Positions 3,190 to 12,242 of a stretch of DNA of 64,000 bases are shown here, piece by piece. Source of the DNA: a virus (Duplodnaviria; Heunggongvirae; Uroviricota; Caudoviricetes); the IMG/VR virus record IMGVR_UViG_3300043119_000732; one strand, written 5' to 3'. Numbering within the stretch: the first letter of the stretch is position 1; every line of letters begins with the position of its first letter. The position numbers were made by a program, and so were the translations under genes. Under the pieces are notes generated by a model. That model was not told the DNA's origin. It searched no databases and worked only from the letters and a program-made list of their open reading frames with translations.

Positions 3190-3585
3190 ATGGAATTGTT
3201 AGAACGATATATAAAAGAAATCGAAGAAGATCTTAAGATTGACGAATTTAACATAAAAGAAGTAGGCCTAAGAATACCTGCTCGTAAACATTTTTGGGTT
3301 AGTAGACTGATCAATCATAAACGTAATCTATTAAAGCTCGAAAACGATAAGAATTTTTTTAAAAAAACTGTAATGACTGAACTACAAACACAGTCACCTG
3401 TTAAATTAAGTTTGATTACAGCAGAAAATGCTGCTGAAAACCATGATAAAATGAGAGAGATGAATATTAAAATAGGTGAAGAGAAAATAATCATAGAATT
3501 TCTTGAAAAGACAGAAAAGACATTTTCATCTATGACCTACGATGTTTCAAATATTATAAAAATAATGCAATTAGAGCAATTGTAA
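3190..3585 (+). CDS. uvsY: UvsY-like recombination mediator
   Basis: 131-aa helical protein (DLKIDE...IP..KH.W) immediately upstream of uvsW, as in T4-like phages. Confidence 0.7.
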   Translation: MELLERYIKEIEEDLKIDEFNIKEVGLRIPARKHFWVSRLINHKRNLLKLENDKNFFKKTVMTELQTQSPVKLSLITAENAAENHDKMREMNIKIGEEKIIIEFLEKTEKTFSSMTYDVSNIIKIMQLEQL

Positions 3586-5030
3586 TGAAAAGTATACGTA
3601 TAGATTATCTAAAAAATCGTGGACTTTGTAGGTTATCTGGTGATTTTCTAACTGAAATAAGGGAACATTTCAGTGTAAAGAACGAAGGTGCCTTTTTTAT
3701 GAGAAAAAAAGGGATGAGGTTTGTTGCTGATAGAAAATACTTTATAACACCTACAGGTATGTTTGAGCCGGGGCTATTTTTTGATATATGTAAATTTATA
3801 TCTGTAAGTTTTACTGATGTAAACCTAGATATTGATAAAGATATACCAAAGGTAGTTAGACCAACAGTAACCGGTGTTGATGTTTATGATGATCTATCTC
3901 TTAAACTTAGAGATTTTCAAAGCGAAACAATAAAGAACGCGCTTTCATTCGGTAGAGGTATAATTAAAATAGGTACAGGTGGTGGTAAGACTTTAATCTC
4001 AGCAAGTTTATTGAGTACGTTTTATAATTATAAGGTTAAGAAACTAAAAGCACTAATGATAGTTCCAGATCTATCACTTGTAAACCAAACACACTCTGAT
4101 TTTCTAAGCTATAAAGTACCATTTACTGTTACAAGATGGACTGGAAATATAGAACCTGATCTTAGCAGTGATGTTATCATAGCAAATATAGGTATATTAC
4201 AAAGCAAATATGCAGAAAATCTATGGATAAACGATGTAGATTTAGTTATTGTTGATGAAACGCACAAATTAAAAGGTAAAAACAAAATATGTAAACTTGT
4301 AGATGAAATTAAAACATACCATAAATTTGGTCTTACAGGTACATTACCTGATGATAGAGGTGAAGAGCTAAATATTATAAGTAAATTAGGTACTATTATC
4401 TATGAAAAGAGTAGTTTTGAATTAAGAGAAGAGAAATATCTTACACAAGTATCTATTAAAGTATTAGATATAGATTATACTACTAAAGTTCCTCAAATAC
4501 CTGGCACTAATAAGTATAAATCAGAATTAGAACACATCTATAATAATAAATTTAGAAACAATATAATTAATACACTATGCAAAAACTTTAATAACAATAC
4601 TCTAATACTAGTAAATCATATATCACACGGCCAGTTAATTTACGATAATCTTAAAGCTAAATTACAAGATAAAATCGTATATTTTATACGAGGTGATGTA
4701 GATGTAGATGAGAGAGACAGAGTTATTAAGGAGATGGAAGTTAAAGATAATATAGTTTGCGTTGCAATAAGTGCCATATTTTCTACTGGTATTAATGTAA
4801 AAAATATACATATGATAGTTTTTGGATCAGGTGGTAAAAGCTTTATAAGAATTATACAATCGATTGGTAGAGGTTTAAGATTACACAACAACAAACAAAA
4901 ATTGACTATTGTAGATATAGTAGATAATCTAAAATACGGTGGTGCTCACGGTATGCATCGCAAATCTATTTACGATAGAGAAAAAATTAATTATTCTTCA
5001 ACAAAACTGGTTGAAAAACCTCTAGATTAA
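3585..5030 (+). CDS. uvsW: UvsW SF2 DNA helicase
   Basis: LRDFQ Q-motif, GTGGGKT, VDETH, GLTGT, STGIN, QSIGRGLR. Confidence 0.92.
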   Translation: MKSIRIDYLKNRGLCRLSGDFLTEIREHFSVKNEGAFFMRKKGMRFVADRKYFITPTGMFEPGLFFDICKFISVSFTDVNLDIDKDIPKVVRPTVTGVDVYDDLSLKLRDFQSETIKNALSFGRGIIKIGTGGGKTLISASLLSTFYNYKVKKLKALMIVPDLSLVNQTHSDFLSYKVPFTVTRWTGNIEPDLSSDVIIANIGILQSKYAENLWINDVDLVIVDETHKLKGKNKICKLVDEIKTYHKFGLTGTLPDDRGEELNIISKLGTIIYEKSSFELREEKYLTQVSIKVLDIDYTTKVPQIPGTNKYKSELEHIYNNKFRNNIINTLCKNFNNNTLILVNHISHGQLIYDNLKAKLQDKIVYFIRGDVDVDERDRVIKEMEVKDNIVCVAISAIFSTGINVKNIHMIVFGSGGKSFIRIIQSIGRGLRLHNNKQKLTIVDIVDNLKYGGAHGMHRKSIYDREKINYSSTKLVEKPLD

Positions 5031-5043
5031 ATATAATCTCACT

Positions 5044-5493
5044 ATGGCAAAACGAGGTCCAAAACCTAAAAAGACAGAATATTATGTAGACCCTGAAGAG
5101 TTTAAACAGAAACTTGTTATATATTATAAATCTAATGAAATTACAAATGAGTTAGCTGAATATATTAATAAAATTGCAACAGGTCTAAGTTATTCCTCAA
5201 ATTTTATTAACTATACATATAGAGATGAAATGGTAGGCGATGCAATAGTAAAGATGTATACTGCAGTTAAGAATAAAAAGTTCGATATTAAATCAGAATT
5301 TAACCCTTTCAGTTACTTTACAACAATAGCATTCAATGCATTCATTAATAGAATCAAAAAAGAAAAGAAGCATCACGATACGATAACAGAGTATAAAGAA
5401 AGAATGTATGAGCAAGAGTTAACAGAAAATTGCGATGTTGACCTCTACGTAAAGCCAATTAGTGATGATTATGACAGTGACTCCTCTGAATAA
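5044..5493 (+). CDS. gp55: T4 gp55-like late sigma factor
   Basis: YYVD...F, FINYTYRDEMVGDA, NPFSYFTTIAFNAFINRIKKEKK. Confidence 0.92.
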   Translation: MAKRGPKPKKTEYYVDPEEFKQKLVIYYKSNEITNELAEYINKIATGLSYSSNFINYTYRDEMVGDAIVKMYTAVKNKKFDIKSEFNPFSYFTTIAFNAFINRIKKEKKHHDTITEYKERMYEQELTENCDVDLYVKPISDDYDSDSSE

Positions 5494-6532
5494 TAAAATA
5501 GCAATATTTACGGACTTACATTTAGGGGTACATCAAAATAGCGATTTTTGGTTAAATGTTGCTTTAAACTGGGCAAATTGGTTTGTATCTGAGCTCGAAT
5601 CTAATAATATAGATACTGTTATATTTTGTGGTGATTGGATGCATTATAGAGATGCAGTAGAAGTTAAAACTCTACATTATCACTCACTAATTTTACAAAA
5701 ATTAAGTAAATTTAAGATTATTATGATACCAGGTAACCATTGCTGCTATTATAAGAACACATCAGATGTTCATAGCCTTTCAATAATGAAAGGTAATTCT
5801 AATATACAAATTTTTGATAATATAACCAGTGTAGATTTTAATGGTAAACGATTTACATTCTGCCCTTGGGGATGTGACATAAAAGATATTCCGCAAAGTG
5901 ATGTAGTGTTTGGTCATTTTGAACTACAGAATTTTAGAATGAACGGTCATAAAATCTGCGAACATGGAGATAACCCAGATGATTTAACAGCAAAAAGTAA
6001 GCTAGTATTTTCAGGACACTTTCATCAACGAGATGAAAAGGTATTTTCAAACATCTGCAAAATAATTTACGTAGGTAACCCATTCCAGACAGACTTCGGT
6101 GATGCCTATCAAACAAAAGGTTATTATCTATTAGATACAGATACACTACAATTTGAATTTAAAGAAAACACATTAACACCTAAACATCTAAAAGTTTCTC
6201 TTTCAGAGATTATTACGAACAAAGACCCAATCACATATTTTAGCAATAACTTTAAAGGTAATATTATTAAGCTAATAGTAGATAAAAATATATCAACAGA
6301 CCATCTAGATCTTTTAGTCGGTAAAATAACAACATTTAAACCTGCAGATCTTAAAATAGATTACGATGTTAACTACAATAAACTAAAAGTACACGAAGAT
6401 GTAGTAGACTCTGACATAAAGGGCGCTGAAATAGAAAATATTGTAACAGAATTTGTAAGCATGTTAGATATAAATAACAAACAGGAAATTATAAAATATA
6501 CTTTATCCTTATACAATAAGGTAATTACATGA
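5462..6532 (+). CDS. gp47: gp47 / Mre11-SbcD-like recombination nuclease
   Basis: Metallophosphoesterase motifs DLHLG, GDWMH, GNH, GHF, SGHFH; adjacent to gp46. Confidence 0.92.
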   Translation: MMIMTVTPLNNKIAIFTDLHLGVHQNSDFWLNVALNWANWFVSELESNNIDTVIFCGDWMHYRDAVEVKTLHYHSLILQKLSKFKIIMIPGNHCCYYKNTSDVHSLSIMKGNSNIQIFDNITSVDFNGKRFTFCPWGCDIKDIPQSDVVFGHFELQNFRMNGHKICEHGDNPDDLTAKSKLVFSGHFHQRDEKVFSNICKIIYVGNPFQTDFGDAYQTKGYYLLDTDTLQFEFKENTLTPKHLKVSLSEIITNKDPITYFSNNFKGNIIKLIVDKNISTDHLDLLVGKITTFKPADLKIDYDVNYNKLKVHEDVVDSDIKGAEIENIVTEFVSMLDINNKQEIIKYTLSLYNKVIT

Positions 6533-6762
6533 AGTACGTAAACTTTAAAAACATAAAGATAAAAAACTTCCTATCAGTAGGTGATGATGTGGTTAGTTTA
6601 GACTTTAATACAGGTTTAAATATTATCACCGGTATTAATAGAGATAAGGAAGACAGAAGAAACGGTGTAGGTAAGTGTGTTGATCCGCAGACTGAAGTAA
6701 CTATTCAAATAAAGGATGCAATGGTTTTGGAAAAGTTTAAAAAATTTATTGAGAATCAATAA
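6529..6762 (+). CDS. gp46: gp46/Rad50 N-terminal part (49-aa N-extein) fused to a 28-aa split-intein N fragment
   Basis: KNFLSVG...G.N...NGVGK then CVDPQTEVTI (intein block A, Cys1 at 6676), ending at TAA 6760-6762. Confidence 0.88.
   Translation: MKYVNFKNIKIKNFLSVGDDVVSLDFNTGLNIITGINRDKEDRRNGVGKCVDPQTEVTIQIKDAMVLEKFKKFIENQ
6676..6759 (+). mobile_element. Split intein N fragment (28 aa)
   Basis: Begins with Cys right after the Walker A GK; CVDPQTEV matches block A. Confidence 0.85.
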
Positions 6763-6770
6763 ATAATTAT

Positions 6771-7852
6771 ATGAGTTACAATTCACCACAACAATGGCAA
6801 TTTTGGGTAACTAGAAAAAGAATCAACCCTGATACTGGAATAGTTTTTACAGAAGAAGAAGCAAAAAGGCATGTAAGCTCATTTAGAAAATCCTCAAAGT
6901 ACTTTTGGATTAAAAAAGGGTATACAGAAGATGAGGCTATTAAAAAAGTATTAGAGCATCAACAAATATTATCGCAAAAAAGTAAAAGCAAAAATACAGG
7001 ACGAAAGGATTGGAGAAATAATCAAGTTGGTTATTGGGTTAAAAAGGATTAACAACGCAAGATGCAATTAATAAGGTTAAGGAAAGGCAGTCTACGTTTT
7101 CACTTAAAAAATGTATTGAAAAGTATGGAGAATTAGAAGGTTTAAAAGTTTTTAATAACCGACAGAAAAAGTGGCAAATTACATTACTTTGTAAAAGTAG
7201 TAAAGAAATTGAGTTAATAAACAAACTTAAACAACATAGTTTAGAGTCGTTTATATTACGAAATTGTAATTTAGATGATTATTGTAAATTTAGGGTACAA
7301 AAAGGTTCAGATCAATACATCATACACAAAACAAAAAAGTATATTTTAGAAAACAAAATAGAACAAACAACAGAAAATTTTAACACACACTATTATAATT
7401 TTAAATATATTACATATAAGAAACGCGGCAAAGCCTCTAAAGAAAGTTTAAAGATTTTAATACCTTTATATAAGTTTTGTAGGAAATTAGGTATACAACG
7501 TAATGATATCATGATAGGAATTACAGGGTCTAAGGAGTTCTCATTAAGAGATAATAAAAAAATATTTTACTTTGATTTTACAATATCTTCTCTTAAGATT
7601 ATTATCGAATACAACAGATATGAATTTCACCCAGATCCTGAAATTATGTCACATGATGAAATTAAAAATTTTAAATACCCATATAAAAACATCTCCATAA
7701 CATCAAAAATAGAACATGAAAAAAAGAAACATTTAATTGCTAAAGACAATGGATATAATATTATTAAATTTTGGTCACACAAACCATATAACAGTCAAAT
7801 AGAAAGTATAAAAAAAGAAATTAATGAAAGCTACTGTAAAACAAATAGCTGA
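6771..7852 (+). CDS. Free-standing Vsr/DUF559-like PD-(D/E)xK homing endonuclease with a -1 frameshift at 7041-7046
   Basis: Repeats FWIKKGYTEDEAIKKV and (after -1 shift) YWVKKGLTTQDAINKV; the shifted frame is open into track ORF 7511-7852, which has FYFDF...IIIEYN..EFH. It has its own TAAATA-N5-ATG. Confidence 0.75.
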
Positions 7853-8192
7853 TTTTTATAAAGTATATCCTCAATATAAAGGTCATATTGATGTAGAGAC
7901 AAGATTTGGGTTTAACCCTATCGATGAAGCAGATGTAACAGCATACAATGAACAAGTTTATGAAATTGAAACTGATGCCGGAAAAAACCTTAAATGTTCA
8001 GGTAACCATAGAGTATTTACAGGTGTAGAGTTTGTAAAGGTTCAACATTTAAATGTAAATGAAATTGTTCATACAAAGGACGGTTGTGAAACTATAAAAT
8101 ACGTAAGAGGTACTAATTTATTTAAAAATTTATATGATTTGCAAGTTAGAAACGTTAAGGAATATTATAGTAACGGTATTACATCACACAAT
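7824..8192 (+). mobile_element. Split intein C fragment (123 aa)
   Basis: Ends His-Asn at 8187-8192, followed by Ser+1 at 8193. Confidence 0.88.
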
Positions 8193-9848
8193 TCCACTAT
8201 AGCAGATGCATTATACTTTGCTATATTTGGTACTACATTAAGAGAACTTAAGAAAGAGTTTATATCAAACAATATAACTCAAAATACATGCGAAGTGCAA
8301 TTAGAATTCGATGTTAATCAAAACGGTAATACAAACACATACAACATAATAAGAACATTATCACCGTCTAGATTGTTTCTTTATAAAGATGGTAATGATA
8401 TAACATTAGATACTATTGCAAATACAAATTCGTATATTGAAACTGTACTATCATCATCACCTGAAGTATTTAGAAATTGTGTACTGATGACATTAAATGA
8501 TACTCTACCTTTCATGTCAAAGTCTAAAGTAGAGAAAAGAAAGTTTATTGAACAAATATTCAATTTGCAGGTTTTCTCTGCAATGATGTCTTCTCTTAGA
8601 GAAGACCAAAACAGCACAAAGAGAGAACTAGACATAGAAAATGCCAGACTTAGTGAAATTAAAAACAGTGTATCTGCCTTTGAAAAGCAAAAGGAGTTAA
8701 AGTCTAAAGAAAAAGAGACCAAGATATTAGCGATTAATAAAAAAATCAAAGATAACGAGGCAGAGATACAAAAGATTGAAACTGATATTCAAAATGAAGT
8801 TATAATAAATCAGACTGAAAAGAATACAGAATTAGAAAAATATACTAAGGCTTTGGTTAAGGTAGAAGAACTATGCAATCAGACACTTGGAAATGTAGCA
8901 ACAGTAAAAAACGAAATCAAAACCAAAAAAGAGCAATTACAAAAAGTAGGTACTACTGAACAGATTTGCCCTACATGCTTACGTCCAATATCAGAACACG
9001 ATATAGAGGAGATAGAAAAAGAAAAGAAAAATATGCATAACGATGTGCTAAAATTAGTAGAGACATTATCTGCATATGTAAAAGAGGCAAATGGTTTAGA
9101 AGATAAAAAGTCCAAAATAAAGAAACACATAGATAGTCTTAATAAAGATATAAAGCTTGCAGCAGTGCAAGAAACTACAAGACAGTCAAATAAGAAAAGA
9201 ATTACAGATTTACAGAATTTAAATAAACAGTTACAAGAAGGTAGCATAACTATATCAAACGATGTCACGACTTTTGATGAATTAATAAAAGAGGCAAATA
9301 CAAAGATAGAAACATCCAATAATACAATTCAAAGTCTTAAAAAGAAAGCTGATATGCTTGAGGTTGTAAAGTTTGTAATAAGTGAAGAAGGTGTAAAGAG
9401 TTTCCTAGTAAAGAAAATTCTACAAAACTTTAACGCAAAATTAGCATTCTACCTCAAGAAGCTAGATAGTAATAGTATATGCATATTTAACGAGTATTTT
9501 GAAGAAGAGATATTAAACGAAAAAGGTAAGATATGCCTTTATAATAACTTCTCTGGTGCAGAAAGAAAAGCTATTGATTTAGCATGTCTTTTCTCATTTA
9601 TTGATATGAGAAAGACTCACGGAGATGTATACTATAATGTAACTGTATATGATGAACTATTTGATACCAGCTTAGACCAACGTGGTGTAGAGCTAGTAGT
9701 AGATATTCTAAAAGAAAGAGTAGAAACGTTTAAAGAATCTATTTTAATTATCTCGCATAGAAAAGAGAGTGTAAAAGCTGTAAACGGAGATATAATCTTT
9801 CTTGAAAAGCATAACGGAATAACAAAACGTGTAAACTTTGTTGATTAA
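7824..9848 (+). CDS. gp46: Split-intein C fragment (123 aa) fused to the gp46/Rad50 C-extein
   Basis: Block B CSGNHRVF, block F LYDLQV, block G YYSNGITSHN|S. The extein STIADALYFAIFG has a coiled coil, CPTC zinc hook, FSGAE signature and YDELFD Walker B. Confidence 0.92.
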   Translation: MKATVKQIADFYKVYPQYKGHIDVETRFGFNPIDEADVTAYNEQVYEIETDAGKNLKCSGNHRVFTGVEFVKVQHLNVNEIVHTKDGCETIKYVRGTNLFKNLYDLQVRNVKEYYSNGITSHNSTIADALYFAIFGTTLRELKKEFISNNITQNTCEVQLEFDVNQNGNTNTYNIIRTLSPSRLFLYKDGNDITLDTIANTNSYIETVLSSSPEVFRNCVLMTLNDTLPFMSKSKVEKRKFIEQIFNLQVFSAMMSSLREDQNSTKRELDIENARLSEIKNSVSAFEKQKELKSKEKETKILAINKKIKDNEAEIQKIETDIQNEVIINQTEKNTELEKYTKALVKVEELCNQTLGNVATVKNEIKTKKEQLQKVGTTEQICPTCLRPISEHDIEEIEKEKKNMHNDVLKLVETLSAYVKEANGLEDKKSKIKKHIDSLNKDIKLAAVQETTRQSNKKRITDLQNLNKQLQEGSITISNDVTTFDELIKEANTKIETSNNTIQSLKKKADMLEVVKFVISEEGVKSFLVKKILQNFNAKLAFYLKKLDSNSICIFNEYFEEEILNEKGKICLYNNFSGAERKAIDLACLFSFIDMRKTHGDVYYNVTVYDELFDTSLDQRGVELVVDILKERVETFKESILIISHRKESVKAVNGDIIFLEKHNGITKRVNFVD

Positions 9849-9883: not shown

Positions 9884-10753
9884 ATGAACATAGATATTGT
9901 TTATGAAAGTAGGCATCAAAATACAAAAGGTAAAGCTAAAGAAATTATAATAAATTATATTGAAGGTTACTCAGCGTCAGAACTTGCTAACCTATATGCC
10001 GTTAATGTATCTGTAATTAGAGAAATAATAATTAAAAACGGTGTTTCGTTACGTAATAAAAAAGAATCCAGAAACATATTAAGATATAATGAAAAAAGAA
10101 ACAATACAATTTACAAAAAATTTACAGAAGATGAGATAAAAGATATTATTCAGGAGTATTCCAACGGTAAGGGTGTCAATTATGTATCCAAAAAATACAG
10201 CGTAGATAATTGTGTTATTATTAGAGTTTTAAATGAAAATGGTATTAAAAAAAGAAACAGAAAAGAACAATATAATTATAAAAATGTTACTAACGAATTG
10301 TTTAAACAGACCATTATATTAAAATATAATGGTTGGGGTGAATTAATAAAGAGATATCAAGAAAAATTTAAAGAAGAGTATGGAGTTATTAACCCTATGC
10401 AAGTTGCAGAGTATTTTGAAAAACAACAAAATAGCGCTTTTTCTATAAAAACATTTATAGTAGGAGAGAAGGAATTTAAAACACAAGGCTATGAAAATAA
10501 AGCAATTAATTTATTATTAGCTAAAGGTTATACAGAAGATGATATCGAAACAGGTAAATGTAACATGCCTCCCTTTACGTATACATATAATGGTAAAGAG
10601 CATAGATATTATCCAGATATTTTTATAATTAAAGAAAAAAGAATAATTGAAGTTAAAAGTGAATACACATTTAAAATTGATTTGGAAAGAAATTTAGCAA
10701 AAAAGAAATGTGTAGAAGAAAACGGTTATAAATTTGATTTCTTAATATTTTAA
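9884..10753 (+). CDS. Free-standing PD-(D/E)xK endonuclease with N-terminal HTH-like repeats (putative homing endonuclease)
   Basis: YYPDIFI...IIEVKS motif, repeated helical units, and paralogy with 32279..33301. Confidence 0.75.
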   Translation: MNIDIVYESRHQNTKGKAKEIIINYIEGYSASELANLYAVNVSVIREIIIKNGVSLRNKKESRNILRYNEKRNNTIYKKFTEDEIKDIIQEYSNGKGVNYVSKKYSVDNCVIIRVLNENGIKKRNRKEQYNYKNVTNELFKQTIILKYNGWGELIKRYQEKFKEEYGVINPMQVAEYFEKQQNSAFSIKTFIVGEKEFKTQGYENKAINLLLAKGYTEDDIETGKCNMPPFTYTYNGKEHRYYPDIFIIKEKRIIEVKSEYTFKIDLERNLAKKKCVEENGYKFDFLIF

Positions 10754-10775: not shown

Positions 10776-12242
10776 ATGTTCGTACCTAATTCAATAAATA
10801 GACCTAGACTACCGTTTAGTGACCCTACACAGCAAATACAACAAACAGTACAGCCTCAACGACAGAGTGAAGAAATGCTTCCACCAGAACTATCTTTGCC
10901 AAGATTTTTAAACTACTACGCAGACTACTCAGGCTAAACCTTGGCCCATTATATAGTAATATATAATGCAAACTCCTTTAATTGCTGGAAACCTTAACTG
11001 GTAATCAGCAGCGAAGCCATAACGGAACGTTCAACGACTATCACAAAAGTGAGTACACATCAAGTGATGTGGAAATGGGGAGCACCTTACGAGGTGATGA
11101 TATAGTCTAATCTATATAGAAATATATAGCAGCTTTAATAAGCGGGTTTTAATTAACGATTTAAACTGAATATAAATGGTGGTCACTGGAGAATGATCTG
11201 GCCTGAGCAAGTACTCAACGCTCATCAAAAGGCTGTTGTGCATGGTACAACAGTAATGAATCTAGATCCAAGATATTATACTATGGTAAAGTCCGTAAGA
11301 ATTCAAAGACAAGCAACAAGACAACAGCTTGAATTTGTAAGATTCTTACGTGATGTTTCAAAACAAAACGGGATGAAAATAATTTATGAAATAGATGATA
11401 TCTGTTTCAAAGAGGACATACCAGACTATAACAAGTTTAAGCCAGCTTTTGATAATCCAGAGATAAGAGAATCAGCATGTGCAATTATGGCTCTGTGTGA
11501 TGAAATTACAGTTACTTGTGATTTCATGAAAGATTACTACAAGAGTAAGACAGGTAATAAGAATGTTACAGTAATTCCAAACTTCATGCCTAAGTTCTGG
11601 TTAGGTAATTATTACGATGGTACTGAAATAATGACAAGTTATGATAATAATAAGAAGAAGCCACGTATTCTCTATACAGGTTCAGGTGCACATTTCGATG
11701 TAGAAAACAGAACAGGAAATTATAACGATGACTTTTTCCATGTGAATAATGTAATTCGTAAGACTGTTGATAAGTTTCAGTGGATATTCTTAGGTGCATT
11801 TCCATTACCGTTAATGGATCTCGTAAAATCTGGTAAGATCGAATTTCATCCATGGTCTAAGTTATATAACTATGGTCAAGATATTGCTAATATTAAAGCA
11901 AATATGATGATAGCACCACTACAAGATAACAACTTTAATAAAGCTAAGAGCGATCTCAAGTATATTGAAGCGTGTGCTTTTGGTCTACCTATTGCATGTC
12001 AAGATATAGTAACATACTCAAATGCTCCTATTAAGTTCAAGACTGGTGATGAAATGATAGACAGAATCAACGAAACTCTTAAAGACCACAAACAATATAA
12101 GGCAATATCAAAACGTGCAAGACAGTATGCAGAAACACGCTGGCTTGAAACGGATACCAATATAGATTGTTACTTAGAGCTATACAGCACACCTTATGGT
12201 AGCAGTGCAAGAAAAAATATAACAAAATACAATCGGGAATAA
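10776..12242 (+). CDS. Glycosyltransferase (GT-B-like), spliced from exon 1 (10776-10935) and exon 2 (11179-12242), 407 aa
   Basis: Splicing restores YADYSG-C-GHWRMIWP. Downstream are YEIDD, PRILYTGS and APLQDNNFNKAKSDLKYIE motifs typical of phage glycosyltransferases. Confidence 0.82.
10936..11178 (+). ncRNA. Group I self-splicing intron (IA2-like), 243 nt, no ORF
   Basis: The 5' exon ends in U and the intron ends in G. P2 CATTATATA-GTAA-TATATAATG; P/Q AATTGCTGGAAA...AATCAGCAG; R TTCAACGACTA; S GATATAGTCT; P7 GACTA/TAGTC; hairpins TCAC-AAAA-GTGA and CACATC-AAGT-GATGTG (P7.1/P7.2); P8 CACCT-TACG-AGGTG; P9 CTATATA-GAAA-TATATAG. Confidence 0.93.

Follow-up and report, generated by a model that had tools for sequence, protein, structure and literature searches.

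In an uncultured, T4-like phage, represented here by a stretch of 64,000 nucleotides of the IMG/VR record IMGVR_UViG_3300043119_000732 (the window, to which all positions refer unless another locus is named), the Rad50/SbcC-like repair ATPase gp46 is encoded as two genes with a nuclease gene between them. Very probably, this locus is a fractured gp46 gene: a class-1 mini-intein lies in the ATP-binding loop of gp46 at GK/ST (the slash marks the insertion site), a homing-endonuclease gene lies in a loop of this intein, and the two halves of the protein would be joined by trans-splicing. A first-pass annotation, made from the sequence alone, had proposed a split intein in the Walker A motif and had held that gp46 can only be made by trans-splicing. 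This proposal is upheld by a precise insertion relative to an empty site, invariant splicing residues, a HINT fold, the predicted docking of the intein pieces, the presence of a single gp46 and identical independent assemblies. Splicing, homing and the expression of the pieces are the parts that we infer; the trans-splicing of gp46 is predicted, and the intein is probably functional, judging by its residues and by structural models.

The N-terminal fragment is encoded by an open reading frame (ORF) at 6529-6762 (+), whose start overlaps the stop codon of gp47 (ATGA). Its 77 codons comprise 49 codons of N-extein and 28 codons of the intein N-piece (IntN), and the TAA lies at 6760-6762. The C-terminal fragment is encoded by an ORF of 674 codons at 7824-9848 (+), which comprises the 123 residues of the intein C-piece (IntC), ending GITSHN, and 551 residues of gp46; its product begins MKATVKQIADFY and, past residue 123 (the N of SHN), continues with STIADALYFAIFG. 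The reading frames of these ORFs differ (6529 mod 3 = 1; 7824 mod 3 = 0), so that the fractured gp46 announced at 6529-9848, with its halves in different frames, is found as described. The ORF translations and the alignment likewise bear out a 28-residue IntN in the Walker A motif and a 123-residue IntC carrying blocks B, F and G. The coordinates of all parts of the locus are given in the table.

Features of the fractured gp46 locus in the window
Feature	Position	Strand	Remarks
gp47 / SbcD-Mre11-like nuclease subunit	5462..6532	+	phrog_100 1.9e-75; Pfam Metallophos 2.2e-9
gp46 N-extein, 49 codons	6529..6675	+	ends ...RRNGVGK, the first part of Walker A
Intein N-piece (IntN), 28 codons + TAA	6676..6762	+	CVDPQTEVTIQIKDAMVLEKFKKFIENQ; Cys1, block A beta-hairpin, one helix (DAMVLEKFKKFIE)
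Free-standing homing-endonuclease gene, broken	6771..7852	+	pieces 6771-7052 (93 aa) and frame 7043-7852 (269 aa)
Intein C-piece (IntC), 123 codons	7824..8192	+	block B S59..H62, block F D105, block G H122-N123
gp46 C-extein, 551 codons + stop	8193..9848	+	starts at Ser+1 (STIADA...); phrog_77 8.3e-68 from residue 124

All features of a gp46/Rad50/SbcC ATPase are present in the exteins and next to them: Walker A, the CxxC hook, the signature motif, Walker B and the adjoining gp47/SbcD gene. The CPTC zinc hook, the signature SGAE (within FSGAERK) and Walker B (VYDELFD) can be read in the translation of the C-extein, and the joining of NGVGK to ST recreates the Walker A sequence GVGKST. On the PHROG SbcC-like profile, the N fragment covers positions up to 333 and residue 124 of the C fragment starts at 334; as these positions adjoin, the two exteins are exactly consecutive. 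A megablast search of the window against cultured phages gave no match, and the closest gp46 proteins from cultured phages are just 25-28% identical, so that there is no annotated reference for this gene.

The state of the site before insertion can be read from uncultured relatives. A scan of IMG/VR with the protein made of IntC and the gp46 C-extein gave 80 best loci, all related, 79 of them complete across the site. In every one of these 79, the 49-residue N-extein abuts the C-extein in a single frame, without intein; none of the best 80 is a further fractured locus, all being intein-free or truncated. One relative (L001, 87% nucleotide identity) has an uninterrupted gp46 of 600 residues that reads ...NGVGKSTIADALYFAIFG and represents the empty-site allele. 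The N-extein of the window is 96% identical to residues 1-49 of this protein, and the C-extein is 92% identical to it. The alignment of L001 with the window breaks at 6674/8190, which places the inserted element, codon-exact, at 6676-8192. The insertion is thus in-frame and precise with respect to intein-free homologues (L001 and 79/79 relatives), as is typical of a class-1 intein. This alignment was one of the checks suggested by the first-pass annotation, whose claim that joining the exteins restores Walker A agrees with the L001 protein and with the contiguity of all 79 relatives.

IntC alone clears the Pfam Intein_splicing threshold (38.2 bits for a cut-off of 35.8), which answers, as regards the C-piece, the suggestion that the fragments be searched against intein profiles. 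Its residues S59, H62, D105, H122 and N123 are retained by all 13 homologues that share 42-59% identity (alignment A2), and Cys1, located directly after NGVGK, is retained by all 22 contiguous homologues. All 13 homologues examined in detail have Ser at position +1; among the best 150 hits of a profile search (see below), this residue is nearly always Ser, terminase hosts having Thr and a few other hosts Cys. A contiguous homologue (P0003:50-202), 53-57% identical in its IntC part, was modelled with a predicted local distance difference test score (pLDDT) of 97.3, and all 50 of the PDB entries listed as fold matches of this model are inteins or other HINT-type domains, the top one being the atypically split intein VidaL (TM 0.79, E = 2e-9). 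Mapped on the model, IntN forms strands at 2-11 and a helix at 15-25, and the break of the window falls in the loop at about 28-32, between this helix and the strand and helix at 33-44. The break therefore lies just after block A, as had been claimed, in the loop that follows the first helix and well ahead of block B. A nucleophile at position 1, blocks B, F and G, a +1 nucleophile and the HINT fold, which define a class-1 intein, are all found, and the two separate genes about 1.06 kb apart, one for a 28-residue IntN with block A only and the other for a 123-residue IntC, correspond to an atypically split form.

The pieces are also predicted to bind one another. The docking pair consisted of IntC followed by 16 extein residues and of IntN preceded by 10 extein residues, and was modelled in three runs along with three controls. 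The interface score (ipSAE) was 0.86 for the pieces of the window (three runs) versus 0.02 for the best control; the runs share at least 86% of their contacts, and the pLDDT of the partner is at least 77. The mark used for a positive docking is reached by 51/78 solved complexes and by 2/108 mismatched pairs. In the predicted contacts, the IntN hairpin lies on residues 2-5 and 21-25 of IntC, and Cys1 is near blocks B, F and G.

The gene located between the halves begins after a gap of 8 nt that separates it from the IntN stop, and its 3' end overlaps the start of IntC by 29 nt. In the window, its frame is broken at 7041-7045, where an A run has lost one base (A6 to A5). The A5 form is found in the window and in two assemblies from other runs (L085, L086), and the A6 form, with an intact ORF of 360 residues (P0195), in four assemblies of a sister strain (L087, L088, L090, L091). 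Near the break, the A6/A5 difference is the sole one, the seven sequences being otherwise identical over the surrounding 100 nt; this indicates that the frameshift is real and arose very recently by the deletion of one base. The context of the A run is T-AAA-AAG, and the gene otherwise differs from the intact allele by one synonymous change; this near-identity implies either that the inactivation is very recent or that slippage at the A run sometimes restores the frame. Both pieces are colinear with an intact 433-residue gene located between the gp46 halves in a distant locus (L083). The intervening gene reported by the first-pass annotation is hence present, on the same strand as the halves, but it is not one open gene in the strain of the window.

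This annotation had also given the endonuclease gene its own promoter, a claim that our analysis does not support. Sigma-70-like sites near the starts of the endonuclease gene and of IntC are no commoner than in shuffled sequences, a scan for promoters and terminators and a search for the T4 late-promoter motif found nothing above chance, no TATAAATA occurs between the genes, and the space available ahead of the gene is the 8-nt gap. Together with the 29-nt overlap, this gap suggests that the endonuclease gene is co-transcribed with gp47 and gp46.

The assignment of the endonuclease to the Vsr-like nucleases (I-Bth0305I family) is plausible but not proven. Its nuclease domain displays the pattern DF ... 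IIEYNG..HP ... D..K ... GY.I..W, and the profile of this domain gives weak matches in the PDB to I-Bth0305I (3r3p, E = 0.047) and to 3hrl (E = 0.76). DUF559 is matched by one of eight members of the nuclease-domain set (9e-4), and the atlas neighbours of the endonuclease carry DUF559, Vsr or NUMOD3. A Pfam search of the two endonuclease pieces and of the endonucleases of L083 and L081 gave no significant match, and the assignment stays unproven because the single-sequence AlphaFold model of the 360-residue ORF is poor (pLDDT 38.5).

Comparison of the window with the sister strain reveals a step in identity at the borders of the element. IntN, the endonuclease gene and IntC are respectively 100%, 99.8% and 98.4% identical between the two strains, versus 91% for gp47, 89% for the upstream genes and 94% for the C-extein, and the identity declines across the first few hundred bases on either side of the element. 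For the element taken as a whole, the identity is 99.5-100%, against 89-94% for its flanks. This step suggests that the whole unit (IntN, endonuclease gene and IntC) was recently acquired or exchanged, and a recent homing with co-conversion of the flanks would fit it.

The following model for the expression and spread of the element can be drawn. A class-1 mini-intein would have inserted between the Lys and the Ser of the Walker A loop, and a homing-endonuclease gene would have inserted in the loop following the first helix of the intein. The locus would then yield two proteins, one of 77 residues (49 of extein and 28 of IntN) and one of 674 residues (123 of IntC and 551 of extein). The 28-residue IntN would dock on IntC and complete the HINT fold, its hairpin pairing with the IntC strands at 2-5 and 21-25 and its helix packing on an IntC helix. 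A thioester would form at Cys1 and pass to Ser+1, and the cyclisation of Asn123 would free a gp46 of 600 residues with an intact P-loop, the junction reading NGVGK-STIADALYFAIFGTTLR. The spliced gp46 would partner gp47. IntN, the endonuclease gene and IntC would home together into intein-free gp46 alleles; in the strain of the window, the endonuclease would just have been inactivated by the A6-to-A5 change, the intein being left intact.

Could the split be an artefact of assembly or sequencing, the true gene carrying a contiguous, cis-splicing intein? Contiguous mini-inteins do exist at the same site in relatives, and a single continuous frame through the locus was what the first-pass annotation had named as contrary evidence. 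No such frame was found: the halves are about 1.06 kb apart, with a whole endonuclease gene between them, the two assemblies from other runs (both from Logan) match the window at 100% identity for up to 6.8 kb, and the sister strain, in at least four ENA/JGI assemblies, has the same 77-residue N fragment with the same stop, the same 8-nt gap, the endonuclease gene, the same overlap and the same 674-residue C fragment. As three independent assemblies agree base for base, the split is not an assembly error; the arrangement is almost certainly natural, and the artefact explanation is effectively refuted.

Two other explanations accept the arrangement and question its product. The gp46 pieces might associate non-covalently, the intein halves acting as an interaction module only, as in NrdA of the Aeromonas phage Aeh1, an enzyme that is fragmented by a homing-endonuclease gene and active without splicing (PMC3045599); the docking model, which indicates binding and not chemistry, would agree with this. 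All splicing residues (Cys1, the Ser and His of block B, the Asp of block F, the His-Asn pair and Ser+1) are nonetheless invariant among sequences that have diverged to 42-59% identity, mere docking would not need them, and an insert of 151 residues left unspliced within the P-loop, the site of the break, would probably disrupt ATP binding. We therefore regard an interaction module as improbable. Alternatively, gp46 could be a decaying pseudogene, inactivated by the insertion in a phage that copes without it. The adjoining endonuclease gene is indeed frameshifted, and selfish elements crowd the region, with a DUF7487 nuclease gene and a group I intron just downstream. Decay is nevertheless quite improbable: both extein ORFs are intact and purifying selection acts on them (ratios of synonymous to non-synonymous differences from the sister strain, 8:2 and 76:14), the same split is found with open frames in dozens of diverged lineages, and gp46 is single-copy in a complete genome, the window being part of a viral record of 209,282 bp with direct terminal repeats, estimated complete, that holds one gp46 and one intein.

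Trans-splicing of gp46 by a functional intein remains the preferred reading, and three observations weigh against it. Neither a promoter nor a clear ribosome-binding site could be recognised for the IntC gene, and its expression is therefore assumed to occur by read-through or by coupling with the overlapping upstream ORF. Of the few changes that separate IntC of the window from that of the sister strain, most are non-synonymous (4, against 2 synonymous), and none affects a catalytic residue. Lastly, since similar complexes have been solved (6dsl), the docking result may reflect the memory of known split inteins, or likeness to them.

The intein of the window belongs to a large family. With a profile built on IntC, a search of 1.84 billion representatives retrieved 4558 hits at E <= 1e-3 (519 at E <= 1e-10), of which the best 150 were sorted by host. 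Fifty of these 150 are gp46-like proteins that start with IntC, i.e. have the same split, and another 25, also gp46-like, carry a contiguous mini-intein of 139-209 residues that follows GK and starts with Cys; the others are in other hosts, among which SMC/SbcC-like ATPases and large terminases starting with IntC were found by sampling. Contiguous mini-inteins at the same site include those of P0003, P0008, P0012 and at least 20 more relatives. Five other N fragments, of 75-77 residues, end at the same point as that of the window, and two distant lineages (L081 and L083) have the full fractured gp46 arrangement.

According to sequence comparisons, this intein is related to the atypically split inteins AceL-TerL and GOS-TerL. 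The best sequence match of IntC in the PDB, which is weak (E = 0.007), is 6dsl_B, the C-piece CatC of the AceL/GOS-TerL consensus, and Terminase_6N/6C proteins beginning with IntC are among the hits of the IntC profile. In a tree of 60 inteins, split and contiguous forms are interleaved, with 16 changes between them versus a mean of 16.9 after shuffling. The well-supported branches by themselves force at least two changes, and this lower bound is the only reliable count, as the alignment has 123 columns and most branches are weak. A wider picture can be sketched, about which our doubts slightly outweigh our confidence: the family would comprise dozens of 50%-identity clusters sharing one break loop, split and contiguous forms may interconvert repeatedly, and the window and its sister strain would capture three stages of a homing cycle (empty site, active endonuclease and freshly frameshifted endonuclease) within about 10% divergence.

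Fractured genes of this kind were described by Dassa et al. in 2009 (PMC2677866) in eight host enzymes, with one terminase locus broken at an 'unusual point' that leaves a C part of 122 residues. The gp46 locus resembles them in that a phage gene of DNA metabolism is broken by a split intein and an endonuclease gene, free-standing and with Vsr/DUF559-like motifs, lies between the halves, all on one strand. It differs from them by the spacer after IntN, which is 8 nt without control element instead of 27-51 nt, by its atypical split site, seen there only in the terminase locus, and by the frameshift of the endonuclease in the strain of the window.

Later descriptions of natural inteins with an atypical split concern AceL-TerL and GOS-TerL (with their consensus, Cat), VidaL and PolB16 OarG (PMC11766414, PMC10189870). 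Compared with AceL-TerL, GOS-TerL and Cat (PMC2677866, PMC11766414, 6dsl), the gp46 intein has an IntN of similar length with block A only (28 residues versus 25-37), a similar IntC with blocks B, F and G (123 residues versus 104-122), a similar setting (T4-like phages or metagenomes) and a break that, to within a few residues, occupies the same place in the structure (residues 15-112 of CatC align with 20-123 of IntC). Its host, however, is gp46/SbcC-like (phrog_77, 8.3e-68) and not a large terminase, its +1 residue is Ser (Cys1/Ser+1) instead of Cys, its similarity to CatC is low, and its IntN includes its own helix (DAMVLEKFKKFIE) ahead of the break. VidaL (6vgv) and PolB16 OarG (PMC10189870) are likewise natural split inteins from metagenomes with a very short IntN; this IntN is shorter (15-16 residues), the break is earlier, the hosts are different, about 20% of the residues are identical, and PolB16 OarG uses Ser1/Ser+1. 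In Aeh1, mobE, a free-standing homing-endonuclease gene, splits the essential phage gene for NrdA, which is likewise reassembled at the protein level (PMC3045599), but the reassembly there is non-covalent and involves no intein, whereas the gp46 locus has the full set of splicing residues.

The first-pass annotation had suggested that a Rad50-hosted intein of this type could be new. The kind of element is not new, being known from the fractured genes of 2009, from AceL/GOS-TerL, from VidaL and from PolB16, and the gp46 family itself is common in metagenomes. What stands is the absence of a published gp46-hosted split intein from our search: the 2009 study makes no mention of gp46, Rad50 or SbcC, gp46 being outside its eight host enzymes, and a literature search for an intein in any of these three proteins found no description, most subscription-only papers being outside its scope. 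With the gp46 locus, an element of a kind already known is found in a new host and at a new insertion site.

Split inteins with a short IntN are valued for protein labelling, and, in the literature searched, natural ones with an IntN small enough to be made as a synthetic peptide are few (AceL-TerL, GOS-TerL, VidaL and PolB16). A large gp46-hosted family of the Cys1/Ser+1 type would add to this short list, and orthogonal pairs might be obtained from it. Provided that the pieces splice well, IntN peptides of 26-28 residues would form a panel of possibly orthogonal tools for semisynthetic labelling, whose practical value would depend on efficient splicing. From a biological standpoint, the locus illustrates how an essential recombination ATPase could keep working although a selfish nuclease gene cuts its ATP-binding loop. 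The empty site, the intact endonuclease and the freshly frameshifted endonuclease make an unusually clean natural series, and the step in identity at the borders allows the spread and decay of units made of an intein and an endonuclease to be studied.

Several other mobile elements are found in the vicinity. A gene for a free-standing DUF7487/TnsA-like nuclease (9884-10753, +; Pfam 1.5e-26) lies between gp46 and the next gene and is a second insertion of a mobile nuclease within the same 5 kb; it is absent from L087, L088 and L001, where a gene of 402-404 codons directly follows gp46. No kinship between this nuclease and the endonuclease of the intein was shown, the hhalign comparison with the nuclease domain giving a probability of 3.6%. 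Further downstream, a group I intron without ORF of its own (10925-11129, +; Rfam RF00028, 96.6 bits, E = 1e-24) interrupts a gene in two parts (10776-10937 and 11157-12242) at ...YYADYSG/(C)GHWRMIW; the product, of about 402 residues, has a weak glycosyltransferase-like match, and the gene is uninterrupted in L001, L087 and L082. Upstream, a gene for a SegE-like GIY-YIG endonuclease (2527-2952, -; Pfam SegE_GIY-YIG, 2.3e-30) adjoins that of a SNF2/UvsW-like helicase (3585-5030), so that this replication/recombination module also carries a free-standing homing-type nuclease. In the distant locus L083, a family-B DNA polymerase gene is in two pieces (6983-9713 of that locus), with a LEM-3-type GIY-YIG gene and an ORF of 119 residues between them.

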